64,000 bases of DNA. Source: Psammoneis japonica. Lineage: Eukaryota. This document shows, piece by piece, positions 11,456 to 63,521 of the stretch. The notes under the pieces are model-generated. The model worked only from the letters and a program-made list of their open reading frames with translations. It ran no database searches and was not told the origin of the DNA. The first letter of the stretch is position 1. Every line of letters begins with the position of its first letter. The position numbers were made by a program, and so were the translations under genes. The stretch lies in NCBI GenBank assembly GCA_008632985.1, contig QPGO01000045.1, positions 124,001-188,000 on the forward strand. The letters are read 5' to 3'.

Positions 11456-11574
11456 GGTGATTTCTTGTGTGCTGTCAACTACTCGTCAACACTCAATCAG
11501 CGACAACGGGCCCGAACGTGTGACGGACGGACTGTCGGATTCTCCAAATCTCTCACAATTTCAAGTGTGGCAAT

Positions 11575-11736
11575 GCTGCCAACTGTCATTGACCCTGTTG
11601 GTGGTGATGCCATTGTCATGTTTGACCAACAGTCAAGTCACAGTGGTCTCAGTTGGCTGCCAGCTGTCATTGACCCTGTTGGTGGTGATGCCATTGTCAT
11701 GTTTGACCAACAGTCAAGTCACAGTGGTCTCAGTTG
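11575..11736. repeat. Tandem duplication, 2 x 81 bp
   Basis: gctgcc(a/g)..tcattgaccctgttggtggtgatgccattgtcatgtttgaccaacagtcaagtcacagtggtctcagttg at 11575 and 11656; one mismatch. Confidence 0.95.
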
Positions 11737-13939
11737 AGAGTTGTTGCAGTTTCTTGAACTGCATGCCCCACATTTCAAAATGCTTGAGAGTCACTGCAGT
11801 TTGAGCCACAAGCCCTGCATTTTAAGAGACTGCTTTCTCCATCAACTGCAGTGGGTTGGCCAATTGCACTGCTGCTCACATGTGTTGCTGGTGCATGGGT
11901 GCCTCCATCAAAATGAGAGTCCTGCACAAGTGCTTTCCCCCGCGTCTTCCTTGCATTGTGAACAATCAACTGCTTTGCACGAGACAGCTGTGGATCAAGG
12001 ACTGTCTGGCATGCATTTGCAAGAATGTTCTGATGGACAATCAACCGCAGCGATGGCTTAACTGATTGGTTTTGAAAAGCAGCATTTGTCGTGACAATCG
12101 CTGTCATGCAAGCATCGTGCGTGGAAGAACCCTCGCCAACCAAAAGCGCAGCTGTTCCATTGCTGTTTCAGACTCACTTAAACCTGCTCTCAAGAGATCT
12201 GCACTCTAGCCACCAGCCATTCACATGCGCAGGCACTTCTCAGTTTTCATTGCGGAGCTGAAGTTTGCGTGCAGTCTGTGATAAAAACCACACTCATCGC
12301 AAACAGAATCAAGAACAACTGACAAAAGAATCTGGGTTTGAATCCCTTCTTCACAATTCCCGACAGGCAGGGTTCACAGGCCAGTCAAAGCACGAGATGT
12401 CACATTTGTCGATGAATTGTGGGCACACAAAAGTGCCTGTGAAAGAATTGCCGAAAAGACGTAAAAACTGGCTGCACACATTTTGAAACAAACCAGAAAA
12501 GGCGGGGGGACTTAGCTGCCAATGAATTCATGCAAACAATTTCCATTGTTTGAACTAACAAACTTTATGTCATGTGACACGTTTCTCACGACGCACTTAC
12601 CTGAACTTGTCAATGCAGCCATTTCACTGGGAACGGTGCCCGTGAGAGCATTGCAGCAAATGCTCACCCTTTCTGTAAATGTGGGAGAGAATTACCAGCA
12701 ATTTAGAATCATCACATTACATGCCAAAGAGGAATGAGACAATGCATCGCCTCAACGGATGTCGCACTCACCCAAACTTCTTAATGAGCCCAATTCACTT
12801 GGAAGAGTGCCTTCGAGACGATCATTGAAGTTAAGGCACAAATCATCTGTACAACCAGGAGAAAGAAAGAAAGAAAGAAAGAAAGCATCGCAAGGTCAGA
12901 ACCCACGGGGTAGAAAAACAAACAGTGCAACCCATGCGGCACTCACTTAATTTCGTCAGCAAACCAATTTCTGTGGGAATGGTGCCAGTGAGATCACCCA
13001 CTTCGAAGCTTAAAGAGGCTGTGAACATGAGAAAGCAATGAAGGCAGCGACCAAGTTAGAGGCCCATGCAGCAGGGACATGGCCCCATCATTTGCTCAAG
13101 CCAGCGACTTGACAGTTTACCTGAGTCGGAGAGCAAGCCAAGATCTCGCGGCATCGATCCCTGCACCTGGTTGTGACTCAAATCTAGTCTGCCAACATCC
13201 TGACCAAAACATGTTAAACCATGCCAAGCACACTCATCGCTGTCATTCAACCACTCCTCCTTGTTCTCCCAACCAATTCCATTGGTGCTGTAGCACAAAG
13301 TGGCCAGTGCAAAGCGCTGCATTTTTTGCTCATCTGAACAGTCGTCAAGAAATGCGTTTCCTTCTAGCCAAGACAAGGCCCGGGACTGAGGGGAGGAAGG
13401 ATCTTTGAGTGACTCACCAGCATCCAATGATGCAGTTGCAATCAGATCTTCCACCGCAGACATTGGCACTGGTGCTTGGGTTGCTGGTGCTTGGGTTGCT
13501 GGTGCTTGGGTTGATGGGCCGCTTGATTCCCGGAAAACCACAACAACTAACACAACTGCAGCAACAGCAGCAACCAACGCAAAGAGAAGAAGGAAAATGC
13601 CCATTCGTTTGTGTCTCACCAACCATGAAAGACATTTTTTGTTGTGACTGTCTCCATTGGCGGAAGAATGAACATCATCCGCAACATTCTGAGTTTGATT
13701 GTCAGCAGAATGAATGATTTCACCTTGCGGTGCATTTTCCATGGCGGCAACCCGTTCCCACAATTGATGGACTTCTTCAAGCATCTCGGTGCAGTTGTCA
13801 TTCTCCACTGACCTTGCTTCCAGAACTGGTGGCGCGGTTGCTGTTCTCTCGCTGTCACAATGGGGAGCAATGGGTGGGGCCCTCGTTTGCCTCATTGTTT
13901 TGTTTCCTGGGTCTCGTCCTGAGCCCCTCACAGTGACAG

Positions 13940-14146
13940 TGTTCGAGGGCTCCAAGGGCTGCATGCACTCTGTCTTGTTGCAAACTTTTGCTTTTCTGAC
14001 ATTGTGATCTTTCTGATCTGTTCTGTCTAAATTCAATCTTGTCAAATGTCTTGTGAGTCTTGCTGTTCTTCGAACTTCTTCATCTTCTAAGATCTTCTGC
14101 GGGATTCCCGACCAACCCGATTCAATCTCGGGAACTCCCTCCGACA
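13940..14146 (-). repeat. 3' LTR
   Basis: TG...CA termini; direct repeat of 18651-18859; preceded on the minus strand by a polypurine tract. Confidence 0.93.
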
Positions 14147-14160
14147 CTCTCCCCTCGGGA
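14147..14160 (-). promoter_or_regulatory. Polypurine tract of the Copia element
   Basis: Minus strand cccgaggggagag directly before the TG of the 3' LTR. Confidence 0.8.
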
Positions 14161-14169
14161 ATCTCGTGC

Positions 14170-17100
14170 GTCTCTGCAGCACTCGTCATGCATTCGTCAT
14201 TGCCAACAAACTTCGTTGCATGCTTTTCAAATGTGGGGCCAGACAAATTCTTCGTAAACATGTCCAAAGTCATGTCGTCTCCGCTAACCCAGATGCAATC
14301 AACAATGCCCGCCTCCTTCAGTTCTCTCAAAAAATGCTGCTTGACTTCAATGTGCCTCGTGCGTCCGCCCACACTCCAATTGTCGATCAAATCTTTGGCA
14401 CCCTTGTTGTCAACGCACAGCTTCACAGGTGGTTTCACTTTTAATCCCATGGAATTCAACACCCTCATTGCATGCATCATGTCTTGTGCACACAAAGTAG
14501 CACTGAACAGTTCTGCTTCTGCAACCAACAGTGCAACAATGGGCATCATTTTACTTCGCATCGAAATGGGCGCCTCGTGCAGACACGTGCTCCAACCATT
14601 CACGCTGCGCCTTGTCTCCTGATCCTTTGCATGTTCTGAATCACTCTTGCCCATGACAATAAATTCATGTTCCTTGGCTCCATTCCATTTGGCATTCGGT
14701 TTCAAAAATGATCCTCTCTTTGGTGTTCCGACGCAGCATCGCATCACGCGTTTCATTGCGGCCACATGAGCTCTCACAGCACCACTCATGCACCTTGATG
14801 GCTCCCTCACTGCATTCAAAATTTCGGGTCTCGTCCATCTCATCATGTGTGACAACTTTCCTGTTCCAGATCTGTAAATCTTTTGACCTTTGTGGTCCAT
14901 CATTTCTTTGTCGCTGCCTTTCACGAGTGATGAGCCACCTGGTGCTGGAGTCCTTGGACAAGTTTCTTTTCCCAAATCAAACTCGTCTTCAAAGCTCTGC
15001 ATCATCACTGGTTGAGCAAGTTTCACCCATCCTTTGTCTCTGTTGATGTCAACCTTGCATCCAACATGTTCTTTTAATTCTCCTAACTCGGTGCAGTCAA
15101 ACAGTCCTTTCATTTGATCTTTCACTTCTTTCACACGTTCTGTTGGTCCTGCCACCAAGCAATCATCAACCCAAGTGAGCCACATGACCAATCCTTCCTT
15201 AAACCACTTGAACTGTAAACAAGGATCAGCTCGGCTCCTCGCATGTTCCATCTTCTTGAATGCCTCCTGCGTTTTGCGCAAAATGACATCGCCGCTTGTT
15301 TCAGTCCACAAATTGTCCTCAACAACAACAACACGACGTTTTCTGGATAGAATCTCTCAAATCCTTGCGGCACTTTCACATGGAGTTTCTCTCCTTCAGC
15401 AAATCTTCCATTCAGAAATGCTCCTTGAACATCTGGCAGTTCGGCCCACAAATTTGCCACAACAATCAACACCAGTGCGATTCGCACTGTGATGTCATTC
15501 ACCACTGGTGCTGACTTGTCACTCTCCTTGTGGTGCTCTCCATCAATTTGCTCAAATCCACGAGCATCAATCCTTGCACGACAGGTTCCGTCTGCTTTCT
15601 TCTTCATGGCCCACGTCGAACTTAAAATTTTCGCGTCGCGCGGCACCTCATCTGCTGGCACTTCTTTCCAGGCCTTGCACCTCTGGAATTTGTTGTGCTC
15701 TTCCTCGACTGCATCATTCCATTCTTCCACATCATCAGTCTGCATGGCTTGGTTGTGCTTCACAACCTTCAGTTCCACAGCATTGTCGAATCCGCCTCCA
15801 ATCCCGGCTCCGACCAAAGACACTTCTGGTTCTTTCGACTCCAGTCCATGCATGGCCATCGGATCGAAACCATCTCCACAGAATGATGACAACTCATTCA
15901 GTTCCTTCACATGAGCATAAAATTTCTGCTCAGCAGGTGTCAATTTGACGTTTTCAATCTCCGCAATGAGTCCATCAGGCGGTTTCACGGCTCTTCCAGA
16001 TCGAGTCATTGGCGCATGTTTTGGCACAGAATCGGCAGATTCGCCCGATTCATTCATCTCTCCCCCGCCAACAGACTCGTTAGGCTCCTCGTCATCACTG
16101 TCTTCATTTTCACCAATGTCCACCTGATCTGCACTCTCCCCGACTTCCACATGGGGTTCCTGAGTCAACACTTCAGGTGTGATGTCTTCTCCGGGGTGCA
16201 CTGGCTCTCCAATCGCTTCCTGGCGTTGACAGCACATGCGCTTCAACCAGATGATGTCGCGCATCACGTAGATGGTCCCTGACTTTGGGTCCAACATTTC
16301 ACAACAGTCTCCGTCATGATCAATGGCGTGTCCCACCATCACACACTGAACACCTCGATCAGCAATCTCAGGTGCACTTTTCTTCTTGACAGTGACCGCA
16401 CCGGCCTCTCCCCATGTGCGCAGATGCTTCGCAAATTTTGGAATTTGACCCGACCAGTGCTCGCATCGCGTGGCCACTTTTCCGTCTAGCTCGACAGTCA
16501 TGAGTCCGTCCAACAATGTCACAGTTTCAAATGCCTTGGGAAATGCCTGACACCTCATGTCCAATGGCACATTGGCATGATGCATGACAGCTCTGCCTTC
16601 ATTTGCCAAACTTGCGAATCCCAATTCGGCCAAATGATTTTGTTGCGGCGTGTTTCTCGCGGTGAACTCAAATTGCAGATTCATCTTCCAATCACTGCTC
16701 TGAGCTCTGTCTCTCAACTTCTTGTTCTCACCAGCATTGTCAAGCCTCACACACTTGAGTTCCTTGCCTGCTTTAGTCCACTTGCTCCACTGTTCTAGTG
16801 CAGGCTCCACCATGCTGTTCTTCGTCTTGAAAAATTTTGAAAATTTCAACTGCGTGCGCTCGTCGACCACAATTCTCCAATGGCGCTTGGAGTTGACCTT
16901 GGGACCCTCCTTGAGTTGCTTGATGCTGGCAATGTCCAAAAGCACTCGATTGCCTGCACTCTTAGCTGGTTCGTGTTGACTCTCCTGTGGCACATTCTTC
17001 TGCTTGGCTTTTCCCGCCGCACACGATTCGCACGGCGCCATTCCGCCACGAGCAATTTCCCAACCCAAAATTTTTGCAATGCGTCTCGTCTCATCTTCAT

Positions 17101-18580
17101 TTGGATGTCCCAATTCACAATGAGCTTTCTCAATGCTGAGCTTCCTTGGCATCATTGTGTTGGCCACTTCACCTTGTCCTCGTTTCATGTGCATCGCGAA
17201 TGCCATGCCTCGATTCGTGCGCATCTTGACATCAAATTTTATCTCGACGCCATTCTTACAAATCCATGTTGCATTTTCGTCACCTCCAAGTGTCCATCCT
17301 TGCATCTGCATCTTGGCAATGCTGAATGGATTGAACTCATTGCTTGATGCAATGCTCACATCCTTCAGAGTGGCACCCACAAGCTCACATCCGTTCTTGT
17401 CGCACACGGTGCCCGGTGAGTCGACAACAGACTTTGCTCCTTCTTCTGCACCATTGCTGGCGGCCAACTTGTCATCAGCAGTTGCTTGTTTCACGTTCTT
17501 GGCACCTCTCATGCTTGCACAAGAATGAACCGATGATCCTGAATCCGCCACCCATGCTTCTTCTGACTCCAACAATTTCAGAGTCGCTGGAAATCCAATG
17601 GTCTCCGCACTCGTTGGCAACAGCTCGACTTTGGCTCCGGCATCAACATTTGACAATCCGGTCTCGTTGCTTTTCTTCTGTTTCTCTTTAAACCACGCTG
17701 GAACCTTGTCCGCATTGTCAGGATTCATCCAACAATCCTTGCTCCTGTGACCCGTTTTGCCACAGTTGAAGCACTTTCCTTTAAATTTCTTGTCACCACC
17801 TCCACCGCCTTTCTCAGGCTTCCTCGGCTTGGTGCACTCACAGGCCTCATGCCCTTTCTCTCCACAGTTGTGACACATGACACTCGACTCTGTCGCTGTC
17901 AAACTAACTTCGTTTGTGCTTTCTGACTCGGAATTGCCACTTGCATTCCTCCACAACTGTGTCATCGCTTCTTGCAAATGCTTCATCTTCAATCCGTTAC
18001 CTTGGATGCGTTGTTCAGTCATCACAACTGACTTGCACACCTTGGGCGCTTTCTCAAATGCGACGGCAATCAACTCATCATCGGGAATCTTGTGTGATGC
18101 CGCATTGAACTTATTCTCAATGCCCTTCAACTGCTCGAACAATTTTCGAGGTTCTTCGTTGTCCTTCAACGTCACCTTGTTCATTTCGCGACGTAACTCG
18201 ACCTTCGACATCAGGTCCTGCAGCATGCACATCTCGTGCAATGCCTCCACCATTTTCCATGCTAGCCCACTGGGCCATTCAGTTGTCTGAGATGCACGCA
18301 CAATGCCCGTCAGTCCTTCCGCAGCAAACACCATCGTGAAGTTTGCTGCTGCAACGGCACTTCGTTTCTTTGCTTCTTTCTTCTTCTTTCCATCATCAGC
18401 AGTTTCATCAATGACGTCCGTTTCAGCATTTGGCAAGTCCGCTTCAACTGTCTCATTCATTGCTCGCGCAAATCCGTGCACACTGGCATGCGCAACCATC
18501 CTCATCCACCAGACCTGAAAGTTCTCATGCTCACCATCAAAGCTTGGCAAGCACACCGATTTCTCTCCTGCAATCTCCAT
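14170..18580 (-). pseudogene. Copia gag-pol, frameshifted near 15280 and Tyr-depleted
   Basis: CHNCGEKGH and CFNCGKTGH knuckles, WVADSGSS protease, HxxLGH...CESC, RLDNAGEN, TPQQNHLAE integrase, DVQGAFLNG, WVDDCLV RT, DNKGA/RTRHIEVK RNase H; split across ORFs 15131..18592 and 13056..15311. Confidence 0.92.
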
Positions 18581-18629
18581 CTTGCTTGACACTCAATTGT
18601 CTTTCTTATCTCACAGCCTCTGGGGCCTT

Positions 18630-18650
18630 CGCCTGTCACACTTCGAAGTG
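18630..18650 (-). promoter_or_regulatory. Putative non-canonical primer-binding site (complementary to a tRNA-Asp anticodon arm)
   Basis: No TGG-type PBS after the 5' LTR; minus-strand gtgacaggcg, 11 nt from the LTR, is complementary to CGCCUGUCAC of eukaryotic tRNA-Asp(GUC). Confidence 0.45.
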
Positions 18651-18859
18651 TGTTCGAGGGCTCCAAGGGCTGTGCGCACCCTGTCTTGTTGCAAACTTTT
18701 GCTTTTCTAATGTTGTGATCTTTCTGATCTGTTCTGTCTAAATTCAATCTTGTCAAATGTCTTGTGAGTCTTGCTGTTCTTCGAACTTCTTCATCTTCTA
18801 AGATCTTCTACGGGATTCCCGACCAATCCGATTCAATCTCGGGAACTCCCTCCGACTCA
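18651..18859 (-). repeat. 5' LTR
   Basis: Direct repeat of 13940-14146 with about ten substitutions; outer end ccgactca has 2 nt more than the other LTR before the TSD. Confidence 0.92.
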
Positions 18860-19500
18860 GACAGCTCCGGGGTTCACATGTCCAGAGACACCGGTAGATT
18901 CGGAGGACCTGGAAGCAGTGGCAATGCCCACAATTTCAGGTCTTGAAGCAACAGTGCCTTCCGCATGTCTGCCCATGGGAGCCTCAGGCTTGGAATCGCC
19001 ACTGTCAACGTGTTTCTTTTTCCTGCCGGCTTTTCTTGAGTTGCCTTCGACAAATGAAGGAGTGACTGCAGCTTTTTCTCTATCCGTGAGCCATGGGACT
19101 TCGCTGGCAAACAAGGTCGGGCGCTGGGCGTCCTTCTCACTCTTGGTGTTGCTCATGCTTCTGTCCCAGCAGCAACACTCAGGTCACGAGCAACGCAAAA
19201 TAGCAGCAATTTGCCAATGAGTGGTCAATGAAAATGATTCAATCACGGATCGTATTTCGTTTCCTCGCGCGGGTTCCCGGTCGTGGTAAATGCAGTGGTC
19301 CTGCGATTCAAACTCGTGGTCATCGCTGTGTCGGCAGCTTGTGGCTACTCTGCTCCACTAGAGAGTCTGCCCGTGAGATCTTCGTTGCTGTCGGCATCCA
19401 TGCCGGTCACTCTCTCTGTTGGCTTTAGGTGGCAGCAGGCCCTTAGAGCTCACTGCCATCCTCTCGCCTCTCGCATCCTTCTGGCATCATCCCTCCTGTC

Positions 19501-20855
19501 ATGATGGCAAGGTTCTTTTTGCCACATCAACGGAAGGTCACGGTGCCTCTTTTCACAGCAATGATCCTCATGTTGACGTTTGCTTTTCTCATCCTCCCTG
19601 GACTCAACATGGACTTTCTTGAGCATCGTCAGACCAAGAGCGCCACTCGCGCTCAAAAGGTGTCAATGGAGTCGTCATTTCACGACAAGAGCATTGCATG
19701 GTCTCCGGATGTTCGCCAATGCTGGCTCAATGATGATCATGTTGGCAACTCTGAAAAACCTCCAGCCCAAGTGCTCTTGACTAACTACGGTTGGAACCAG
19801 GCAAATCAAAGCCATGCATTGAAATTCTTCAGGTCCCCACGACAGCGAGAGTTGCTTCGAGGAGTTGTCAATCACCCGTGGTTTCATCCAGCAACATGGG
19901 AGCAGCACTGCAACCGTTCAGCACCATTGAGCAACCAAACTCGGCATTGCGTCTTTCTTGACGTGGAAACTTGCTGTGAACGACTCTGGCCCTGGCATGG
20001 GGGCGAACAAGGAGCGAGCAATGCAACCTCTGACACAGGGGGGAATCGCACTGGCACAACAAGTCGCGATCATTGTGAAGTGATTGAGGATGCATTGAAC
20101 CAGCCAATTGTGAAGTTGCCGGGTTCCAGGTTGACAGTTTTTGACTGTGACCGTGCAGGACCCTCAAAATGTGCAAGACGAGACAGAAACAAGGACGAGA
20201 GATTAGCGCTGGTGTCCCTTTCGGCTCATTCCAGACAACACATTGCCTCGATCGACCAGGGCATGCCACCTCCGGCATGCAGACCTTTTGAGTTGAACCA
20301 AGAACAGTGGGAAGGCGTCACATCTTGCAATGAAACCTCGCGTCCAGTCCTGGCATCATTTGTTGGAAAATTCCGATCCAAAGTGAGGAACGACCTGAGG
20401 ACACTCCACAATTGCAAAGACCTTTTGATTGAACAACCGTCAGTTGTAGAGCATTGCTTTCCATGCAACAATTGCTCGCATGGAGAATTGTTCTTTCGTT
20501 CCAGGTTTGCACTGACACCCCGCGGCCAACACCTGTTTTCGCATCGTTTCACTGAGGCAATGTCGGTTGGGGCCATTCCCGTGGTGCATGCAGATGATCA
20601 TGTTGTGCCTTTTCAAAAGGAGCTTGTAGATTGGAGCAAATGTAGTGTGACAATCCCAGAAGCAGATTTCAACAAAACAAAGGGCATTTTGTTGAGCATC
20701 TGGCCGACGAGCAATGTCGCACGCGCCAAAACGCATTGGAGGTGCATGACAGGTTCATGAGGACAGGCGATGGCACCATTTCTGGGATCATTGAAGGATT
20801 GGAGCATGCATTCAGAGGAACCCACGCTGGTTGCTCATTTGGTCCATCATTGTGA
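19501..20855 (+). pseudogene. Exostosin-family (GT47) glycosyltransferase, hypermutated, frameshift near 20700
   Basis: N-terminal TM anchor; LASFVGK, SRFALTPRG, FSHRFTEAMSVGAIPVV, VPFQKELVDW motifs; one Tyr in 419 aa with family Tyr positions reading His/Cys; the C-terminus continues in another frame. Confidence 0.8.
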
Positions 20856-22199
20856 ATGCCGCGCACATTGAAACCAGCAACGAATTGAATCATGCATCAC
20901 CGTCATCAATGTCACCAGCCAGCTCAATTTAGAAGTGCATGCAAAGGCAGCAGTGGCCCCTTTGACAGCACCAAATTGGAGGATGCTCACCTTGTCCTGC
21001 TTGCAGGCTTTTTTGCGTTGATTTAACTATGAAAGCAAAGCAGTGATGAGCAAATCTTCTTTCTGCAGGTCTCACTCGCATGGCACCGTGAACTGTGAGG
21101 TGGCAAAAACTCTGCAGCGACTGGAGATCTCAGCAGGAGGCCTTCCAAGTTGACTCAGAGGACAATCAGCTGACCAACTTTGCACACCCAAGGATGCTTT
21201 AGCCAAAAGTCTGATCTAGCCTGAAGCATTGGGTCCAGACAGTTGGGAGCTGAAAAGAAGATTGAGAAAAAGTGCTGCTTGGCGGTTCTCCACAAAATCA
21301 CCTTCACTGCATGTTGCAAGATGCGCCAAACAGTGTTTGAGTGCATCATCTCTCATTGCACCCACGTTGTTTGGGCCCAACACAAACAAGCAGAAATTGT
21401 TCTTTGTCATTCCAAGAGCAACAAAAACACTCATCTTGGGAAAGCAGAGCTTCCCAAGGAGCCCCAGAGTTAAAGCAGAGCTTGCACAAAGAGAGCAGGA
21501 CACCTGGTTGGTTGACAGACAAGCCATGACTTTCCCTCTTTTGCATGTCCTCCAGCTGATGCTCTTTGACATGATCAAACAGCTCAAGAGCAAAAGATTT
21601 GACTCACACAAGTGACGCACATTTGGCGCTTCTCAGCCAATCCACAAAAGAACAAGAAACAGGCAGCACACCAATGCAAAAAGCTTCCCTTTTGGTGCTT
21701 TCTCAGCCAGCGCACAATGAGGAATCTCCACAGCACCAAGAAAGAGTGACCAGGACCTGCTGATGTGGCAAAAGAGAAATGTTGGCAGCAGGGCTTTTTT
21801 GGCCACTTTTGCGCGGCATTTTCAACTTCAGAGAAAGAGCTCAAAAAAAGACCCAGTGCTGTGGTTGCTCTTCATTTTTTGTCAACTTCACTGATGACCA
21901 AGCACCTCTTTTTTCTCTTGCTGCAGCTGCTGCCATGGCGCCATTGTTCTGGAGTGTGCTGACAGCTGCAGTGCTTTGAGTGCATGTGCAACACAGTGAG
22001 CACTTTGTTTGTCAATGACGAAGGTGACACAGCCACTGTCACGGCACAGCTGACAATGATGGAGAGGTGCTGGTGTGATTGCCAAGGTGCCCAACAGCGC
22101 TCTTCATCCCTTGACTTGTTCTGACCAGCACAAAAGAGTTTTTGTTCACTTTGTTTTCAGCCAAGGACCATCTTTGGAATTTTGGGGAGAAGATGACAG

Positions 22200-51400: not shown

Positions 51401-51888
51401 AACACCAGTTCAGAACCAACTGAGTTTACAAGCTTCTTGATTCTAAATTGCACCCCACTTTGAAGTGCGAACATTCTTGTCCACAATTTTAATCTCAACC
51501 CTTTTAAACATTTGCTGTTCCTTGTTCCTTCATCACATCTCTTTCCAATTGCAATCCACCATCCTTGCCTGCAACATCCTTCTACATTTTGTCTCTTTGC
51601 ACTGTTGTTTTAAAAGCAAATGTTGCAACTGCCATTTGTGCTTTGCTGGCAATTGTCTTGGAGCTTGCCTCTTTGTTTTTGCTGTGATCTGGATTTTGTT
51701 GTTTGCTGCAGTTTACATTCACATGCCAGTTTGGTTTGTTGCCATGACTGCAATTGCTTCCATGCCATCAGTGGCAGCCACTGTCTGCAAGGGCAGGTCC
51801 TCTCCCACTGGTGTGGCCCATCCATCCTCTCTCTCCTTCCTCTTCTCCTCTTTGCCTTCCATTGCCTCTGTTCCTTGAAGAACCATGC

Positions 51889-52284
51889 GACGCGTTCCAG
51901 CCCTAGGTGGGAGCTCGTAGTGCTGACGTGTGACAACAATAATTTTTATCATCCGTCGTATGTTTCGTACGTAGATTTCTACGTGTGATATTTAAAAAAA
52001 ATTGTCCAGACTCGCTGTTTCGCGAAGCCCCAGACGTTTTATATAACAAATTTATAGAAACAATAATGCGCCAGTTACATTCTTCAATGTCTGAAGAATG
52101 TAACTGGCTAAGTAAAAAATGATGTACTTCAATCATGTGCGAGTTTGTGCGTTCGCAAAATTGCCTCATTTTCTGTTGGCGATCATTGACATTTTAATTA
52201 CCGTATAATTTTACTACGGAGCTCGCACGTAGAAGTCTACGGGCCCAATGTCACACGGATTCCCACCTACGTCTGGAACGCGTC
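51889..52284 (-). mobile_element. GACGCG-MITE copy 5 (396 bp, TSD ATGC), unmutated
   Basis: gacgcgttccagccctaggtggga / tcccacctacgtctggaacgcgtc; atgc on both sides; full TpA content; perfect 17-bp-stem hairpin at 52070-52108. Confidence 0.95.
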
Positions 52285-53299
52285 ATGCACCAAATCCTTT
52301 GTTCTCCTCTTGGTCTTTCATCACCCACTTGCTCAGTTCATTGTGCTTCTTGACCCCCTCTTTGCTCCATCCTTGGCTCCTCTTGGCCAATCCCCCCACA
52401 GCTGTTGCTGTGTGCTTTGCAGCTGTGGCATCTTCTGCCATCAGCTTTCTTCACCTTGCAATGTTGTTGTCCTTCTCCAATTTTTCCACCATGTCAACCA
52501 CCTTGCCACAACAGTTTGAGCATGCCAGCAGAGCAAAGGCCTCCAATGACATGGCAGACCACTCTTGGAGCAAATTGGTTGTGCTTCTGCCAGACTGCAC
52601 TTGGCCCACCACAGTTGGTGCTGCCACTTTCAAGTTTCAAGAACCACTGTGCGTGTCTTTGTCAGCCCTGTCCTTGACCCAATCTTTGCACTCAACCAGC
52701 AACCCCTCCAAAGCAGCCTGTCCATGACTGTCAAACACATGCACCGTGTTGCTTGCCTGTCATCCTTCTCCTTATGTTGTCCTGCATGTTGTTCCTTTTG
52801 CAGCTGCATTTTTCCCTGAACACCTCTTTGTGTGTGTCCCAGAGTGCCTCTGGCACATGTTCCATGCTCCTCAACTCTTGCAAAAACACCAAAAGTTCTC
52901 GGTCAAAGATTGTGAACTTGTGCCATGGCTGCAGGCTTTCATTGGCCACCTTTGTCAACACAGACCCTGTCAATTTCTTGCTGACTGCTGGAGCTTGATC
53001 CATCACATGACATCCCTCCGTGGGAGTCACAACAGAACTTGAAAGAATTGGCTCAATTCCCTGCACTCATTTGTTTGTGCATTGAACAATCCCATCACCA
53101 CCACAGGAGGGCTCATGGCAACTGCAAAGCATGCCAAAGCGGCCAACTCTAACTTGTCAGTGCAGCTGTTGGCCTTTGTCCTGCCCTCCTCAACCCAACT
53201 TGCTGTTTGATGTTGCACTCCCACCATCTTGCATTGTCTCACTCCTGTGACAACCTTTTCCTCCATGTTCTTTCCCATTCTGACAGGCGGCTCTTGTGT

Positions 53300-55500
53300 T
53301 GCAATGTTTGCTGCTTTCTGTCTGGTTTGTGACATGAGAAGTCATGAAATGAGCACACTTTGCAAGTGTTCTTCTCCATTTTGCCATTGCTTGCTTCTCT
53401 CAGATTGATTCAAACAGGTGTTCTTTGCATTGTTTTTGAGTGCACATTTTTGACTCAACATTTGAATTTTTCAAAACCTTCTGCTGTTTTGAATTGCTGT
53501 GTTCCATTGCAAACAATTCATGCACGCAACTGCAGATTTGTGCAGTTTAAAAATTTTCTCCCAGCCCTGCAATTTGTCACTCATGAATGTGTTGGCCATT
53601 CCATTTTCTTTTCTGACACAACTGCAGATTCATGTGGTTTTAAAATTTGCTCCTGACCCCACAATCATTCACTCACAACTCAATTGACCATTCCCTCTTC
53701 TTTGGTTGTTCACAATTGAATTGACTGTTCCCTCTTCTTTTCCAATGCCCTCCCTCTCCAACTGCTTCAGCTGTCACCCAAACAGAGCAATTCTGTGTTT
53801 TGACAATGGACATCTGCATGCATTCAACACAAATTTGCTCATTCTCTGTTCTCATCCAATGGTGGAATGCTGCGCCATTGTCATGCAAATGTGGCAGCAG
53901 CAAACTGCAGCAATTGCCAGGATGCACGTTCCCTTTGCTGCCGACACATGCCGGCAATCAAGCATCAATTTGGTCATGTTGCTGATGGTGGCATGGAATC
54001 ACATGGAGGGGCAGCAAGTTTTGATTTTTGCCAAGGTCATTGTCACCCCACCCATTTTGGTGCTCAGCTTTGCAGCCTGTTTGTGTTTGGTGTGCTGGGA
54101 TCAGGCCTGACACTCCTTGCAGTTGTCCTGCTTTGGTCAATCAGCCATTCCTTGCCAAAGATGATGCTGTGCGCAGTTTGTGCCATGAGAACAAGAATGC
54201 CAAGATTTTCTTTGACAACTGCAATGGGCAGATGCTGTTGGACAAAAATGTGACACAGAATTGCTTTGAGGAGATCTTGTTCACTGAGTGCACAGAAGGA
54301 ACAGCTGTGGCTTCACTCAACATGATGATGTTCTGTGGTCACACCCACAAATGGACTCATGAACCCTTTTTTGTTCCTGCCTGTGAAACCAATCTGTCAT
54401 GGGGTGGTGAGGTTGACAGGCACTTTTTTCACAAGCACACCCAAAAACCATCATGCACCCGCAGTGTGCGGCAACTGAGTTGCTGGTTAAACAGCAAATG
54501 TCATTTTGGAAACAGTCCCGTGAACTGTCACAAGAAGGCGGCATTGTGGCTCCAACATGCTGATGCTCCTGTCCTGTGATTGCACAAACAATGGGCAGAT
54601 TGGTCTGGCAATGAAGCAGCCCATGAAGAACCACCTGTGGAGTGTGGCAACAATTGGCAGCAGCAACAAGGCACCCAGACTTGTCCTTCTTGTTTTTCTT
54701 GTCCATGTTTGGGATGAAGCCAAGAGGATGCCAGCAGCGACAATCATGACAAGCCTCTTCTTGAATCATTGCAAGTGAGTGCATGAGATGCTCCACCCCA
54801 TGTTGATTGACTGCATTGACTCCAGTCTTGTTGGAACAATTGACAAGGCAAACACAAAAATTGGGTGCAGTTTCCTTGGCATTGGAGCAACATTGCAACC
54901 ACTTTGAGCCAACAATTGACAGTCACCAGGATGGCCCAGAAACTGAATGCCACCACCCTTGAAGCTGGCACCAGGATCTAAATCACTGTCAAAAGGAGGC
55001 AGCTCACAAGGTGACCAAATGTCACCGGGGCTCACCCGCAACTTTGAAAGATTGTAGAAATCTGGCTTGGTGAACAGATCCTGTGGGGAGTCTCAGTGAA
55101 ACTGCAAACTGGGTGGGAAAGGTGGGGAATGGCAACATTTGGGACCATCCTGCTGTTGTTGTGTGTTGGATTGTTGCACTCAAGAAACTCCACAGCAGCA
55201 GTGTGGGGGAGAGGGGCATTGGGGAACAACTCCAGAAGTTGCTTCGTTGCTGCAGCAGTTGCAATGGGAGGCTTTTTCAAACCCAATCTTTTTTCTGTGC
55301 ATGCTCTTTGTGGACTGTTCTCATGACTTTGTCAATGAAGTCAATTGCAGCACCTGACTGCCAACAGAGATGATGGAGAAGCCAAACCATCTGTGCAATG
55401 CTGGGTGAGCAGCAGACTGGAGGGACATCAAAGTCCTCATCAGGGGCAAGGTTGCGTGCTGGTCCCAGTGAGTTCTTGAGGTCAAACAAGGAAACTGCGG
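53300..55500 (-). mobile_element. Decayed Plavaka-like transposase relic
   Basis: Fragments GSWCQ, NKTG.....VEHLMHSL..I.EEA....CWHPLGFIPNM resemble the 'G.WY / DKT...EP.MFTL...R....WRPLGYIP' pattern; heavily frameshifted. Confidence 0.45.
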
Positions 55501-58500
55501 CTGAGTCAACACAGACAGGAGGAGGAGCTGTGTCTTCCACCAGATGTGACATCAAGGGTGGACCATGGGCCCAAAGCACCGTGGAGAGAATCCACTGCAA
55601 TGAACTCAGGAACATCCACAGGGCTGTCCTCTTCAAGGGCAGATGCATTTGCAGTGGCTGCATTGGTGGTGGCTGCATTGGCAGTTGTGGCATGCAAGCA
55701 ACCAGAGCATTCAACAGAAGGGGGGGGGGCACAGACCATTTCCAGCAGAGGGGGAGGGGGGGCAACAGGAGAAGCATTGTCGGAGTGCATGGGAGGAGGT
55801 GGATCTGGACTCAAGCAGACTGTGGGAAGGGGGGCTGGGGTTCATCATCAGCAAAACCAAACATTGAGTCATTGTCATTGTTGCCAAATGTGTCATTGGC
55901 TGTCTGGAGGGGGAAATGAGTTGATGGCATTTGAGACAGCAGCAACAGAGTGTCAAAGGGCTTCCTCCTTCTCACGGCAGGGTGCATGCTTCTGGAGATC
56001 ATGCAGGGCAGTGTTGGAAAAGGGAGCCAGGCAATGCAGACATTTGGGTCTGTCAGCATTGGACCCAAGAGAGGCAACAGAGGCAGCATCCTGAGGAAGT
56101 GAAGAAACCGATTTCCAGCCAGAGAGGGAAGATGTTCAGTTCTTGAGTGTGTGGCTGTGTTGCAGGCGAAGGGAGAAAACAGTGGAAGTGGTGCAGCAAC
56201 AAAAAAGGTGACACTGCACCTGGTTTTCCAAGACAAGAAAACCATGTTGTCCACAACACAGACAACCAAAAGAGGTTGGACCAATGGAACAGAGGCAATT
56301 GGCAGCAATGTGCCAACTGAGACCGTGCTCAGAAAGAAATCCAGAGCCTTTGCACCAAGGACAAACAAGCAAATGCAAAATTGAGTGATGTGACAACATG
56401 CAAAAAATTCATGATGTCAACATTGCATCACCATGACATCAAAACCACATTCTCCACTTGCGAAGGGGTGGTTGAAGCAGATCGCGAAAACAACCCCTCA
56501 AGTGGTGCAACAACGAAACAATTTAACAAGTGTGTTTGAAGAAGACAATGTAGATGCTGAGCATGCAACCATTTTGCATGATGCAGCAGACAAGCGATTG
56601 GAAGAATCTGTGCCAGTTGCAGTGAATGCCTCTGAAGAGGGAATGCCTCCATTTCGAACAGGTGATGCTGACAACAGCTGCATTGTTGAAGAAGATGCTG
56701 ATTCAGAAGCAATGGATGAAGATGATTTTTCTTTCCCAACAACAGATGCAGCATGTGATCCTTTGTCATGCACAGCTTTGAACATTTCCACAGTTGGATC
56801 GCATGTGACATTTAACACAAGCACTGATGAATGCTGGTGCGAGAATTGTCTCGATGAAAGGATCTCAGAATCAGAAAAAATTGTTGCAGTCTGTTGTTGC
56901 AAAAGGAGGAGGAAAGAAAACTGTCTTGGCTTTGGTGATTCCATGAATCAACATGACAATGGCAAGCAGCAGGCCTTTCAAAACTTGCCGGGATGCCTGT
57001 TGGGCACAGCAGATTTCTTTTTCAACAACATCAACCAGAAAGGCAACAACGACAAAGCTCGAGAATGAGCAGGAGCACAGAAAGCATTTGCTTGGCCATT
57101 TCCAAAAGCGGCCGCTGTGGCTTCAAAATTAAAGATCAAAGGCAGCTCCAGTGCCGCCATGGGGACTGCGCCAGATGTGTGGAACGACATGCTGGGAACA
57201 CTGGTGCGAGTGGTGCCACGTCCGCGGCGGCATTCCAAGAAGTTCTCCAAATTCATGGCAGACTTTTCCAGCCTCTGGTCCTCTTGATGGATGCCTTTTT
57301 GTGCAAATTCTCTCCCAACAATGCAGGCATGACCCACGCCATGCGTGTTGATGTCATGTTGTCAGACAATGCCATGATGTTGATTGCACAGGCCCGCGAA
57401 TCCTTCCAGCAATGTGCGGGACAATCATGCACAGAATTTGTGTTGGCCTTGTGGAGGCATCCACATCTGGGTGTTTCACTGCCTGAACAGTGCTGTCAGA
57501 ATGCAAGCGACAGGCAACAAATCATTGAAAAGCTGACCAGCATGCCCAGAACATTCTGTTTTGTGCTGGTCCGGTGGAACTCGATTCTTCATGCGGGGTT
57601 CCTGCGCATCCAACACGAAAATGGAGGAAGCATTGGTGCCCGCAAAAGCCGACAAAGTTGAGCAGCAGCTTAAATTCTGATGTTGGTGCTGCTCTCTCCG
57701 GGACGACTGCCCTCTCTTGTGAGCTGGGAATGCACCTCCAACTCTGAGCCAGACACGTTTCGCATTCAGACTGAACAATTGATTCTTTTTTTGCAAAAGG
57801 TGGCATTGCAATGTGGCCATGAACATCAGAGCACTTGTGATCAATGCCTCCGATGCACAGCTGCTGACGATTGGCAATCGCCATCGTGACAATCTGAAAA
57901 TCTTAGAAATGGCACCGCACACACATTGAGGTTGGCCAGGTCCATGCACAGTGGGACTCCCACTGCTAGAGTGTGGGTGGGCCCAAGTAATTCAAAAAAC
58001 CGTCAACGGCCATTGCTGTGTAATTTGGCAGCATTTTGGTGCTCTGTGCATGAGGCATTTATGTAGAAATTACGTGCGCACAATTGACAGGGGAAGCGAG
58101 CGTGGAGAAGAGACGACGCGAGCGAAGCACGAGCGAAGAGACCGACAATGATGCAAGTGCCGGAGAGAGACGCAAAGACAGCAATCCAACGATGTTGCAA
58201 GAGGGCGCAAAAGAGAGAAAAGATCCATTTGAGTTAGCACCACATCTTCAATAAAAAGAACAAAGCAAGACAACATTGGTGTGCACAAAAACTTGCACAG
58301 AGAAGCACGGCACCAGCGCCTGAAAAATGACCACATCTGCGGTGAGGTGGAACAACACAAGGAGGTGAGAACACACTTTTCTACAAGTGCAAAGCAACAA
58401 CGAGCAAACAACCAATGTAAACTCACCAGCAGGGTCAAAACTTGGGGTGCCTGGATCGTCAACGGTGGGCAGGGAGGACAGATGGAAGAGAGGCAGTCTG

Positions 58501-60202
58501 GTGGTTCCACGGAGCAGGACGACAAAAGCAGGCAGCAAATCGGCATGAGCAATGGTGGAAAGTCGGAGCTTGGGATCGAGTGACTGGTCCGGTCCATGCA
58601 AATCGTGGTAGAAGCTTGGAGAACGGAGGCAGCACCATGGTGGTGTGGCATGGACCGGGGAGAGAAGAAGTGCCGCGGCGGAACGGCATCGAACGGCGAC
58701 GGAGCCAAAAATGGTGACGGCGACGGCGCAGACCTGTGGACTTAGACATCCCCATCTTCGATTCCTGTGCATCAAGATGCGGGACAAGGAGGTTCAAGGT
58801 GAGCGCCATTGCGAACGAGAACGGGGAAAAAGACGCATGATTCCACGAGAATCAGAACTCACCACATTTTGAGTCATTCTGACCCATTCCAGAGCCAGGG
58901 CTCACTCACATGGCACGACCCAATGGCTCACAACACTGTCAAGCAAGGCAGGGGTCGGGAGGCGGTGTCGTACCGGTCAAATCGGCCAAAAGCGCCATTG
59001 TCGGAGGGAGCGGTGGTTGTCGATCGGCCGCTCGGAAAAATTATGAGCCATCAACCCGACCGCGCACCGTTCGGAGTCGCACAGAATTTCTCGGTACAAA
59101 ATGTACACAAGTGTACGTCAGTATAAAAATCGTGTAGAATGGGTGTAAGTAGAAACATACTGTCTCTCTGTGGACTACGAGGATTCTGCCGTTAAACTAT
59201 ACCAGTATGTATAATTCTACGTGGTGGATTTGAATCAATCCCACCAACGTTTTTAAATTTCGATCGTAATAACGGCTTTAGGTGCTATGATGATTATATA
59301 TATAAGTTTGAATCAAATATCATATATAGCGTTAATAATTTTGAATGATTGCGCGACTGCCAGTCGGCACCAAAAACCGTCGCCAATAAGTAAACCTGCA
59401 GTACAAAAGTACTCTTTTGCAATACTTTGGTACTTCAGTCTTGCACATGAAAGCGCTCCCTAAGTAGTTAACGGTCGAATTATATATATAAAATCCTCAC
59501 AGCGGGAGACCCTATATACGCTCCCGTGTGCACTCAACGCGCCTCGGTTACGACCTTCTCGTTGGGTTGCACAATGGCGAGAACGACCCGGCCGAACCCT
59601 CCTCGTCGGGCTCCATGAGTGCACAGGGCGCGCACCTACAGCACTGTACAGCAGTGCAGTTATGCACTTTATGAAGAAAGAGTCTTAAAAATAAAAAGCT
59701 CCACCTGGAAAACAGACATCGTTTTGCAATGGCCTCCAGCAAACAGAGAACACGTGGCAGCGGAAAAGACACAACAGGAAATGTTGAACTTCCCTGAACC
59801 ACAGAAACATCCATCAAAGCGTCAAAAAGCAACCGAATTGATCGATCGCAACACCATGATGTCGGAACATGTTTGCCGGCAGTGACCATGACGCCAGAGG
59901 TCGGTTTCGGCCAATGCATGCATCCAGCCCGATGTTGGCATGCCGCATGGTGAAACGGTTCCAAGACGTTCTTTTTGCCGGGATTCCTCGTGCATTCTAT
60001 GTGTCTTTGTACTGACGACTGTCCGAGCGCCCTTCGAAAGGCATCGATTCAAGCTGCCACAATTTCTTTGAAGCTGCAAGCAACAAAGACATTGCATCGC
60101 CATCATCACCATGTTGTCCTCTGTCCTCTTTGTGAATGCCGTGATCAATGTCAGCCACTGTGACTTGATTGCAGTTGTGATTCAACGCAAGAGCGCAAGC
60201 GA

Positions 60203-61036
60203 TTGGCTTGTTTTGCTCTTTGGGTCGGCTGTTGTGCCTTGCTGCAAGATCTCGATGTTGTTTCCATCACGACATTCTCGACGTTTGTCTGTGGATTGCA
60301 CCAGGGGTTGTTGGGGCTCATGGAGGACTTTTTGCATGTCAAGCAGCAGTGGTTTCCGAACGTTGCTGTCAAATCGATTTGGTCCTCCATCATCGGGTCT
60401 CCCATCTGGAGCCAACTCCATTTCGTTGCCATCAAGATCAAAACCATCTCATTGAAGTGCACGGGAATCGTTGTTGGCATGTCCAAGGGGTGCATCAAGC
60501 GTGTCGACTTTGCGAGCGCAGCAGCCGTCTTGAAGTGCTTCGATTTGACTGCTGCGGTTGTCGTGTTTCACATCGGCATGGCTTTCAAGAATTTTGATGT
60601 CAGCAGCCTCATGGGATTTCTCTTGCGTCTCATGTTGGTGGCAGCACTGGTCTTTCTCATTCACGTGCACTTGGCGGGATTGTTTTTACCATCAACCGAG
60701 GACGATCTGTCGGGCCATTGCGACGACCGTGTCAAGAAGCCTTGGAAGGAGCCAACGTCCAAATTCAAGAAGGGACAGCACGTGCATTGTCGCCATTCAA
60801 ACAAGACGTGGAGAGCAAAGATTTTAAGGGTCCATTTTGACGATGACCTTGACCCGTTCTACGACGTGAAATTGGGCGATGCACGCGAGAAGCAGATGAC
60901 CGAGGACCACCTGACGGACCAGCTCGGCTCAGGTCACATTCAGGTTTTCATTGACATCTTTGACGATGATCCGGATTGCGACTTGTTGCAAGGTGCTCAA
61001 TGGGGGGAAGGGGATGTCGTCAGTGCAATCTTGTGA
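60203..61036 (+). pseudogene. Hypermutated membrane-protein ORF with a diatom SH3/Tudor-like module
   Basis: Hydrophobic segments followed by FKKGQHVHC...AKILRVHFDDDLDPFYDVKLGDAREKQ; TpA-depleted; start uncertain. Confidence 0.45.
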
Positions 61037-63521
61037 CGATCATTCCAACAAGATGTTCGACAGGGGAGGATTGCCGAGTGTTGTGTGCGGATGCAGTTGT
61101 GACGAGTTTTCGTGTTGAATTCTTTGTTCAATTCGGGCTCTCTTTTTCTGAAAAAAAAGGCCTTTGCTGTCGAGATCAGAGGGCAACCATCTTCACACTT
61201 TTGAATGAGAGTTTGATTGATTGCATTGTGTCTTGAATTCAAGCTCGCATTGGATGCACATTTGGTTCGAGCTGATTCCGAAACATGTCATTGTTTCCGA
61301 ACAGAGCATGTGAACGAGAACAAGAGATTCACGCGGCACTCAAACTCAAATTCACACCGGCATGAAGGTGGTGCCTTCTTTTTCGAAAGCAGAGGGGTGG
61401 CTGTTAAATGATCGAGAAAGGAAAGTTGAAGTCAAGGAAACCACTCAACACAAGAAACTCTTGCTCCCTCTGCAGGAGACGCTTTGCCATTCTAATTCAG
61501 TTGGGCAATCTATTTTGGTTTCATTCAATCAAGATGAGTGGAGTCTTGTACAATGAAAAGACCAAACAAACAAGAAAATTTAATTGACACTTCTCTATCT
61601 TGTCGCAAACTAGACAAAAAGCACTGTGCGTCGTTCGTGTCACAGCCTGCACTCGCAATCAATCAATCCAAGGCTGAGGACGTCACTGTTGGCGGACCAG
61701 TGTGGCAACCTTTAGACTGGCTAAAACTTGTCTCTTGTTCAGCACAGATTGACAGTGGCCACACTCTCCCACTGGTCATCAAGAACAAATGCCAACGAAC
61801 CATGCAGTGTCTCTGGTTGCAGTCAGGCCAAGTGGATCCATTCCACCTGCACATCCCCTTAGATTGAAACCACAAGAGAGTGAACGCCTCAATGCTCGAA
61901 ACATTTTGTGTGGAAGCTGGAAAGAACACAGCTTGATTGTGAAACTCGAGGCACCAAGAGAGACATTTTCAATGCACTTTGCACGAATCGCCTTGGAGGC
62001 GAGAATTGCAGCAGTTTCTGGTTGATCCAGCACCCAGCGAGCAAGGTCGTGGGTCTTTTCTGTCACTGATTTGGCCTGCTTCATGTCTTCCCTTTTGCTG
62101 CGGCAGGCCAACAGGGCGAAGATCCTTGAAAAGATGTCGCCAAGCATGCCTCCTCCGCCTTCTGTTTTGATGCTTCCTGGAATGAGTGTGCACGGCAAAT
62201 GGACTTGCTTTTGTTCTGCATTGAACATGTCCGCCATGAGGAGACGTCTCTTTCCAGAGTGCATTGGAGGGCTTCGCCCACTGATGCAGAAACGTACGAA
62301 TGCCAAGAGGGCAAAGGGCTCTCCCAACCAACGATGACCGTGCTGGCCTTCCAATCGAAAAAGAAATCATCTCCTTCCTCTACGTTGTCGTCATGCTTCA
62401 TGGCAAGTGAAAAGGCCAAGTGAATCAGATTCGAATGTCGTCGCTGAGCCACCGTGTGGAACAGCAGTTCACCACACCAACGATCCGTCAACCAATTAAA
62501 GTTAGAGATGTCGAAAGACATCAGAACTTTCTCTCGCGTTCCCATGCCAAGAGGCGCTTCGGGTCCCGCCAACTTGAGCGCTTCCTCCTTCGACTGTCAA
62601 CTTCTCCTTCAATCTCCTCCACACTTTTCCCAGACACAATGAGTCGCCCAATCCCCCCCTTGACATGATTCATTGTGACTTTCGCACTTCCCTGACACGA
62701 TCAAGGCGAGCTAGAAGTGGAGCGAAAACGCACACCTTCCCCAGCTCCTCGGTAACAGGTCGAAGAGTAAACCCAGCCAGCCAAAGGAAGGAGCCCCGGT
62801 CTGCTTCTGTTGCATGTAAATCAAACCTGCTTCGACCACATTCACTACAAAATGCTTCCAAGGTTGAAAACGCAGTGACAACATCGACCCGATCACACTC
62901 AATGACGGCAAACATCTTGTCGCGGATCCAACCGATCAGTGCGGTTTCCATGATTTTTTTGGCATTGCGAAGATGCCACTTGCCACAGTAGTTTGCAGGA
63001 TCCACCGAAAACAACGATGGCGGAGCCTTCCAATAACGCATCCCGAGCCGACGGATGTGTCAAGTAAATAAAAATGCACGCTTCTTTCCGGAAATAATTT
63101 CAAAGGCCTCCACATCAATTTCCTCCGTACAGCATCCGACATTCACCCAAGATCCAGAGACATACGTGAGTTATGTCCTCGATGAAACACAACAACTCGG
63201 CGAGATGGATCCTCGCAGTGCGGGGTACTGTTCGACAATGGCTCTGACAGAAAGATCAACCTGCATAGCACCATCCGCGGCCAAAAAGTCCATGAGAGCA
63301 AAAACAACCGACTTGGCAAAACTGGGGAATCGCACAGCGCATCATTCTCTAGTAGCTACAATCCAAGCATCATGCTTCTACAAGTGCTATTCTCTTTTAG
63401 AAAGTCTCTCTCACGCTAAAATTCATACGAAGACTGCAGTTGGAGCGAGTTCTTACCATCAAGAGAGTGCGCTGATGTGTAGTCAAAACGTTTCACACGG
63501 GATTAGTTAGACTTGTAAGTG

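Follow-up and report, generated by a model that had tools for sequence, protein, structure and literature searches.

The closest described relative of the system considered here is a hypermutation process in the rhizarian Bigelowiella natans, in which TpA is converted de novo to TpG or CpA within the DNA of integrated giant viruses and virophages (Mettrop et al., bioRxiv 10.64898/2026.01.13.699255). According to the main text of this preprint, 231 single-nucleotide mutations were found in two viral regions of mutation-accumulation (MA) lines sequenced with Illumina, and 230 of these were A→G or T→C. All 230 fell on TpA, at ~6e-7 per site per generation and in some lines only. The same source reports that low-TpA coding sequences in the B. 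natans genome are enriched in reverse-transcriptase and DDE domains, and its authors propose, without proof, an ADAT2-like DNA adenine deaminase, citing the DNA activity of amphioxus ADAT2. Here, we analyzed a 64,000-nt window of the diatom Psammoneis japonica (assembly GCA_008632985.1, contig QPGO01000045.1, positions 124,001 to 188,000 of the forward strand; coordinates below are those of the window). We consider it probable that gene-free, transposon-rich intervals of diatom nuclear DNA underwent a targeted, in-place hypermutation at TpA that matches the B. natans signature.

Several other systems offer partial parallels. Repeat-induced point mutation (RIP), a process of ascomycete fungi, is likewise an in-place, DNA-level transition hypermutation of a dinucleotide on both strands that inactivates transposons, can spill into adjacent single-copy DNA and leaves sharply bounded blocks of aberrant composition. 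However, RIP changes CpA to TpA, which raises TpA and AT content and creates stop codons, whereas the diatom process erases TpA, raises GC content and removes TAA and TAG. RIP requires the RID/DIM-2 cytosine methyltransferases and a premeiotic stage. Deamination of 5-methylcytosine (5mC), which drives CpG decay, leaves the same TG/CA products in silent transposable elements (TEs) and co-occurs at this locus, but it cannot remove TpA. ADAR and APOBEC3 also hypermutate selfish nucleic acids, and ADAR gives A→G changes with a 5′ U preference. Unlike these enzymes, which act on RNA or, during replication, on single-stranded cDNA, asymmetrically with respect to strand and on retro-copies only, the process described here left a strand-symmetric, post-integration footprint that includes DNA transposons and gene remnants. 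Finally, the natural target of TadA and ADAT2-ADAT3, A34, always follows U33 and thus lies in a 5′-UA-3′ step, and evolved forms of TadA, which deaminate dA of single-stranded DNA, mildly prefer a 5′ pyrimidine; the natural enzymes act on tRNA and are not known to be tied to chromatin targeting.

TpA was measured with per-kb dinucleotide ratios, a 250-bp map and a list of all 1433 TA positions in the window, and expected dinucleotide counts were derived from base composition. Three TpA-poor, TG/CA-rich blocks were evident, as an initial annotation of this DNA had claimed with coordinates that are right to within a few hundred bases. Pooled over 38,696 bp, the blocks contain 205 TA against 2455 expected (observed/expected ratio, O/E, 0.08), with O/E values of 1.62 for TG and CA and 0.47 for CG and a GC content of 49.4%. 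The gene islands (22,403 bp) contain 1071 TA against 1596 expected (O/E 0.67), with TG/CA at 1.11, CG at 0.98 and 46.6% GC. The annotation had described TpA in these islands as normal or in excess; it is normal, and no excess was seen. TpA O/E ranges from 0.00 to 0.37 across the depleted stretches and from 0.43 to 0.89 across the gene islands. RIP enriches TpA and depletes CpA/TpG; the blocks show the opposite on both counts (0.08 and 1.62). The diatom process therefore mirrors RIP, in line with the annotation, which had called fungal RIP the reverse reaction.

The depleted stretches are 1-2928, which runs off the window start (block A1; 5 TA against 209 expected and 41 CG against 154 over 1-2900), 3658-5488 (block A2; 4 TA against 104 over 3700-5480), 11481 to ~25100 (block B; 65 TA against 499 over 11500-19200 and 21 against 348 over 19450-25000), 41123-59041 minus one 400-bp island, and 59693-62988 (block C3; 25 TA against 213 over 59700-62990). 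The 400-bp island separates block C1 (41123-51888; 59 TA against 648 over 41150-51880) from block C2 (52285-59041; 26 TA against 434 over 52290-59030). Block edges do not coincide with element ends. Two of them are abrupt, with TA-free runs from 11480 to 11823 and from 41122 to 41666; the onset of block B lies ~250 bp past the open reading frame (ORF) of the LSM gene (10799-11227) and that of C1 ~500 bp past the end of an ORF that resembles hydroxyproline O-arabinosyltransferase (HPAT; 40634). The far edge of block B is gradual and fades over 24300-25500. The depleted domain fills the whole gene-free interval and does not follow single elements, ending a few hundred bp short of the flanking genes. 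Within it, TAA and TAG stops occur 2.4 and 1.5 times per kb per strand, versus 9.6 and 11.9 in the gene islands, and open frames of at least 110 aa number 123 versus 32 (31.8 versus 14.3 per 10 kb). Because TA-poor DNA lacks TAA and TAG stops, open frames in such regions are inflated and gene finders are misled. Two tandem 81-nt units, 99% identical, lie at 11575-11736, at the onset of block B.

The direction of change can be read from coding sequences caught inside the blocks. An exostosin/GT47 glycosyltransferase gene copy (19447-20853, + strand; PF03016, E 1.4e-19) is readable end to end with its tyrosines converted. One Tyr is present in 469 residues, none of the five consensus-Tyr columns of ten homologues is kept, and the 15 Tyr of the closest homologue, P0121 (64% identity), correspond to nine His, five Cys and one Tyr. 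Only 20 of the 159 amino-acid differences from P0121 are reversible by undoing a single TA→TG/CA change; a full spectrum would need a closer homologue. In the window, the reading frame is broken by 1 nt near 20701, past which the C-terminal homology continues in the next frame. A contig from a public sequencing run (X1) carries an extra C at 20701 at full depth, and with this C the gene copy is a single uninterrupted frame; the missing C is either an assembly indel or an allele.

Two further sequences behave in the same way. In the polyprotein of a Copia element, 11 consensus-Tyr columns hold five Cys, four His, one Phe and one Tyr, while every other residue class with at least seven columns is retained at 57-95%; the Tyr content is 0.3%. 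A TpA-depleted remnant of a diatom-type leucine-rich-repeat (LRR) protein gene (12569-13523, − strand) was found by tblastn, with homologues at E 1e-16 that carry LRR Pfam domains and whose named members are from Nitzschia and Seminavis. Homologue Tyr residues lie mostly opposite Cys (25) or His (8), with one Tyr site retained, in counts from overlapping high-scoring segment pairs that are not independent. TAY→CAY, which gives His, and TAY→TGY, which gives Cys, are similar in frequency; therefore, both strands are hit. The polarity is TA→TG and TA→CA, that is, A:T→G:C at TpA on both strands. This is the direction first claimed for this DNA, and it is carried by 14 of 15 Tyr in GT47, nine of 11 columns in Copia and 24 of 30 TA in a pair of miniature inverted-repeat transposable elements (MITEs) described below.

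These replacements also bear on whether there was hypermutation at all. TpA is mildly under-represented in most genomes, and the blocks could be ancient DNA that is low in TpA through selection or composition; alternatively, the polarity could be reversed, with a RIP-like CA/TG→TA change in the gene islands. However, the invariant tyrosines of two protein families were replaced by His or Cys, which indicates loss of function and not selection. In addition, the gene islands have an ordinary TpA level (0.67), and related Copia elements from elsewhere have a median TpA O/E of 0.58. We give this explanation almost no weight.

The specificity and rate of the process are visible in the MITE pair. 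Copy y (51889-52284, − strand; 24-nt terminal inverted repeats and a 4-bp target-site duplication [TSD], ATGC) has normal TpA, with 30 TA in 396 bp, and coincides with a TA-dense island at 51904-52268 inside the depleted block. Copy x (45222-45617, + strand; 4-bp TSD TCTC) lies 6 kb away, is TpA-mutated and is 92% identical to copy y, an identity that is the present-day value and may have been different during the process. A more diverged copy is found at 44073-44481. At the 30 TA sites of copy y, copy x reads CA at 13, TG at 11, TA at six and CG at none, and all 24 TA-site changes are T→C or A→G. Among 27 CpG sites, five changed and 22 were kept; among 282 sites outside TA and CpG, 281 are identical and one changed. 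Because 24 of 30 TA sites changed versus one of 282 other sites, the rate of change at TA exceeded that at other sites by about two orders of magnitude. Ultraviolet or other generic damage was ruled out as a cause, since dipyrimidine and other sites are unchanged in this pair.

The same numbers bear on locally error-prone synthesis or repair, for example, by a Y-family polymerase that misincorporates opposite T or A at TA steps in silent or late-replicating chromatin, with no dedicated base-modifying enzyme involved. Such an activity would fit the regional confinement of the process, and in somatic hypermutation the A:T→G:C errors of Pol eta favor WA. Yet in the MITE pair all but one of the sites outside TA and CpG stayed unchanged while 80% of TA was converted, AA steps are undepleted in the blocks (O/E 1.24), and a strong 3′-neighbor rule applies (see below). 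The dinucleotide specificity in the diatom is also tighter than known polymerase error spectra. An origin in error-prone synthesis is therefore very improbable.

Genomic DNA was mutated in place, in elements of several types as well as in host-type genes. The Copia element is a full-length, heavily TpA-mutated Ty1/copia long terminal repeat (LTR) retrotransposon (13940-18859, − strand; RVT_2, zf-CCHC and SH3_retrovirus domains; tblastn with five full-length relatives) with LTRs at 13940-14148 and 18651-18859, a 5-bp TSD (GACAG) and a single frame break, near 15146-15332. Such a pair of LTRs is identical at insertion; here, the two carry nine differences in the first 205 nt, all of them transitions, and six of the nine are CA-versus-TG or TG-versus-TA. 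The mutated MITE copy is a DNA transposon with an intact 4-bp TSD, and the host-type GT47 and LRR gene copies were mutated as well. An edited RNA intermediate is excluded as the source, since the changes extend to DNA transposons and to gene copies that are not mobile. The LTR divergence after insertion, the MITEs with TSDs and the host-type gene copies thus bear out the annotation's view that genomic DNA was the substrate. Of the classes that it listed as affected, the LTR element, MITEs and host-type genes stand, and LINEs (long interspersed nuclear elements) do not: a LINE-type domain was found in none of the 141 open frames scanned with Pfam.

A→G changes with a 5′ U/T preference would also result if double-stranded TE RNA underwent ADAR-type A-to-I editing and the edited copies were then reverse-transcribed and integrated, and a Copia retroelement is among the mutated sequences. 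This route leaves unexplained why the two LTRs of the integrated Copia element came to differ at TA sites once it had inserted, why TSD-bearing DNA transposons and host-type gene copies were mutated, why both strands were hit equally (His about equal to Cys, CA about equal to TG) and why the mutated domain is a continuous interval and not a set of elements. The 3′ preference of ADAR is G, which differs from the T>C>G>A order found here. We regard the ADAR route as hardly tenable.

To describe this sequence context, TA survivors in the blocks were compared with the gene-island density by tetranucleotide class. No ATAT (124 expected) and no ATAC/GTAT (275 expected) was left. Survivors numbered six against 124 expected for GTAC, 12 against 233 for ATAA/TTAT, 12 against 228 for ATAG/CTAT, 31 against 325 for CTAC/GTAG and 14 against 98 for CTAG, and rose to 36 against 204 for GTAA/TTAC, 45 against 169 for CTAA/TTAG and 48 against 69 for TTAA. 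A per-strand multiplicative model, in which each A is hit independently according to its 3′ neighbor, gave an R2 of 0.86 over the ten tetranucleotide classes, with survival values of 0.05 for TAT, 0.17 for TAC, 0.45 for TAG and 0.84 for TAA. The preference is for TAY, then TAG, with TAA nearly spared. At the 24 converted MITE sites, the product predicted by the model agreed in 14 cases, disagreed in five and was tied in five; GTAG became GCAG in four of four cases, CTAC became CTGC in three of three and GTAA became GCAA in three of three. Bulk tetranucleotide gains agree with the order TAY>TAG>TAA, as support only, being confounded by CpG decay and by differing source sequence.

Owing to the strand symmetry, this rule reads just as well as T→C in 5′-RTA-3′, and it is therefore possible that thymine was attacked instead of adenine. 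In that case, a TET/JBP-type dioxygenase or other thymine-modifying enzyme would mark the T in 5′-RTA-3′ within silent chromatin, and the product, for example, 5-formyluracil, would mispair with G and lead to T→C. All of the observations fit a T-directed agent equally well, the TAY preference being RTA on the opposite strand. Dinoflagellates carry 5-hydroxymethyluracil preferentially at TpA and TpC, and 5-formyluracil is mutagenic toward T→C. Against this route, 5-hydroxymethyluracil itself pairs with A, and no sign of thymine hypermodification in diatoms was met with, although no search was directed at it. The authors of the B. natans preprint propose adenine deamination, also without proof (bioRxiv 10.64898/2026.01.13.699255). 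We consider an attack on thymine unlikely.

What the process recognizes as a target is a separate question. The initial annotation had called it repeat-targeted and allowed for guidance by homology. A tandem triplication of an HPAT-like gene (35464-40634, − strand; repeat comparison and a weak HPAT match) consists of three copies with a ~2-kb period that are 73-80% identical today, a value that may have differed while the process was active, and has normal TpA (O/E 0.54-0.82 per kb). Whereas RIP responds to duplication, this triplication was left unmutated, which argues against simple duplication-triggered targeting. With this triplicated gene at 35.4-40.6 kb at normal TpA and with depletion that fills whole gene-free intervals, the notion of repeat targeting is not supported. 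Targeting looks regional, directed at silent TE islands.

Within the blocks, TpA-normal segments are found in addition to MITE copy y. A MITE-like element in block A (3006-3540) has terminal inverted repeats of 58 and 56 nt that are 91-93% complementary and matches the dense TAs at 3011-3534; a clear TSD was not seen. We read it as a later insertion or an escaped element. A 650-bp island at 59042-59692, in which TpA and CpG are both normal and (TA)n runs occur, showed no convincing terminal repeats, no tRNA and no Rfam match; it may have inserted late or have been protected. To judge from the unmutated MITEs, either the process works in episodes or these elements inserted very recently.

TpA loss and CpG decay can be told apart. 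Among 79 environmental relatives of this Copia element, TpA O/E ranges from 0.24 to 0.87 (median 0.58), and six of the 79 have a CpG O/E of at most 0.25 yet keep TpA at 0.45-0.64. Therefore, the depletion is neither a trait of this Copia family nor a by-product of CpG decay. In the Copia region of the window, CpG O/E is 0.7-0.8 while TpA O/E is 0.10-0.15, so that TpA loss is far stronger than CpG loss even where CpG is largely retained. The earlier statement that 5mC deamination explains the CpG loss only thus agrees with both comparisons.

A sequencing or assembly artifact, in which modified TA in heterochromatin is misread as TG or CA, would produce the same composition, a possibility already raised in the initial annotation, and the platforms used for the assembly and for run X1 are not on record. 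Run X1 contains 96% of sampled words of 19000-28999, and its contigs, built from accurate reads at a k-mer depth of 56-71, differ from the depleted block of the window at 0-4 letters per piece of 0.8 to 3.5 kb. As these high-depth contigs reproduce the TA-poor sequence, a consensus artifact is unlikely. The MITE and the other islands within the same blocks read normal TA, and none of the 30 TA sites of the MITE pair reads CG, which mixed-strand miscalls would sometimes produce. In B. natans, MA lines sequenced with Illumina gained the same changes de novo (bioRxiv 10.64898/2026.01.13.699255). Similar sequences also exist elsewhere: an unrelated metagenome contig (L032, 1-4018) has seven TA against 141 expected over its first 2.5 kb, followed by normal DNA, and Tyr content is below 1% in four of 150 Copia representatives among public metagenome proteins (median 2.4%), the two lowest coming from ENA metagenome assemblies. 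Taken with these observations, misreading of modified bases has only a very small chance of being the explanation.

The Copia ORF on contig L032 switches near nt 2500 from TpA-depleted, with Tyr replaced, to TpA-normal, with Tyr present. There are two possibilities for this switch: it is either a hypermutation edge inside the element or a chimeric assembly of mutated and unmutated copies. The Copia-like metagenome proteins P0170 (Tyr 0.18%) and P0147 (Tyr 0.72%) suggest, from their residue content, that the same process operates in other sampled organisms. Differences between the window and run X1 are too few to use: there are 12 single-contig differences in the block, of which five are CpG transitions and four are TA↔TG/CA, and 10 differences over 9.7 kb of block sequence versus one over 5.5 kb of gene-island sequence. 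At 21672-22338, inside the depleted block, the summed k-mer depth in run X1 is ~830, versus ~56-70 in the flanking sequence, and many contigs end there; this segment is a high-copy repeat.

The initial annotation had also presented the process as a candidate undescribed system, a view superseded by the B. natans preprint, which reports the same signature (bioRxiv 10.64898/2026.01.13.699255). Judged by the main text of that source, the two cases share changes that are almost solely A→G/T→C at TpA and give TpG/CpA, confinement to particular foreign or silent regions (within this window, 0.08 versus 0.67), a rate orders of magnitude above background with apparently episodic action, and the low-TpA, high-CpA+TpG clusters left behind. 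They differ in that the B. natans process was measured de novo in MA lines, whereas the diatom case is inferred from a sequence footprint, and in that the main viral region of B. natans is moderately depleted (rho TpA 0.45), whereas whole TE islands of the diatom approach saturation (0.08). Neither a flanking-base preference nor LTR or MITE evidence is given in the main text of the preprint, and diatoms are not mentioned there. Full-text literature searches, which exclude subscription-only papers, returned this preprint alone and no report of the TpA signature in a diatom or other stramenopile. The diatom case is thus a real new, near-saturated instance of a very recently described kind and not categorically new. 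Beyond the main text of the preprint, its footprint adds near-saturation over whole TE islands with sharp limits at neighboring genes, post-insertion action on LTR elements, MITEs and gene remnants, and a TAY > TAG >> TAA rule that binds any candidate enzyme.

Any mechanism has to accommodate the polarity, strand symmetry, post-insertion action, sequence preference, regional confinement and rate far above background observed here. In the model that we favor, the A of 5′-TA-3′ on either strand would be changed to G, so that the TA step becomes TG or CA. The 3′ neighbor would set the rate, with TAT and TAC fastest, TAG slower and TAA almost refractory. The reaction would proceed to near-saturation over the whole silent interval, whatever its content (LTR retrotransposon, MITEs or remnants of ordinary genes), and would halt a few hundred bases from neighboring genes. 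Coding capacity would be lost by missense changes, Tyr to His or Cys, and not by stops, and ATA, TTA, GTA and CTA codons and TA-rich promoter motifs would be lost with it, while ordinary CpG decay would run alongside as a separable process. The agent may be a polynucleotide adenine deaminase that acts on DNA (dA→dI, read as G), which is our leading inference, and it may be recruited episodically to silent foreign DNA, through the state of its chromatin or small RNAs. The candidates named in the initial annotation were a TadA/ADAT-like deaminase, a modified base and Pol eta.

Several observations weigh against this interpretation or limit it. Mutation is missing from two MITEs and from the 650-bp island within the blocks, which would need very recent insertion, episodic activity or escape. 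The baseline for context survival was the gene islands and not the pre-mutation sequence, and the order of TAT and TAC is inconsistent: TAT has fewer survivors, yet ATAC became ATGC in two of two MITE cases and the bulk gains point the same way. Among the low-TpA windows, stronger TpA loss goes with stronger CpG loss (Spearman 0.69, n=37). Such a correlation is expected if both accumulate over time in silent, methylated DNA, and a mechanistic link of TpA loss to cytosine methylation, rather than shared age, is possible. The platform of run X1 is not recorded and X1 may be the source sample of the window, which makes that check strong and not fully independent. Finally, the deaminase step itself is something that we infer.

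A wider reading, which we offer as tentative, is that the process may be an old arm of genome defense common to diatoms and chlorarachniophytes and perhaps to all of SAR (stramenopiles, alveolates and Rhizaria). A chromatin- or small-RNA-guided DNA adenine deaminase would then read 5′-TAY-3′ on silent foreign DNA, on either strand, and rewrite it until tyrosine codons, TATA elements and TAA/TAG stops have all disappeared. Candidates for such an enzyme would be a TadA/ADAT2 derivative or the stramenopile-specific deaminases, some of them fused to Tudor domains, described by Iyer et al. in 2011 (PMC3239186), which are leads only. If this reading were true, the system would be an A:T-side counterpart of RIP and APOBEC. 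If the hypermutation as such is confirmed, one of the major groups of marine primary producers inactivates its transposons through the loss of a single dinucleotide, with RIP-like logic and the opposite chemistry. A natural, sequence-specific A→G mutator of DNA would be of interest to base editing, and dating of TEs by LTR divergence would be wrong in such regions.

Pfam scans of 20 and 121 open frames gave only Copia, GT47, LSM (the ORF at 10799-11227), Snf7, Ostalpha and the weak HPAT match. A tblastn search with five Copia relatives found no second Copia element in the window, and most of blocks A and C is without an assigned element class after the Pfam scans (141 frames) and this tblastn search. 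A second public run, X2, whose kind we guess to be DNA, covered nine of 30 bins, all of them in gene islands and none in the block, and a third run, X3, covered none of the bins; X2 and X3 were not used as expression evidence. The ORF at 32183-33853 encodes an organic solute transporter (Ostalpha) whose best relatives, at ~63% identity, are unnamed proteins of marine eukaryotes. Its named matches are all from diatoms (Nitzschia, Asterionellopsis, Attheya and Pseudo-nitzschia), and the relatives of the GT47, LRR and Copia sequences likewise point to diatoms.

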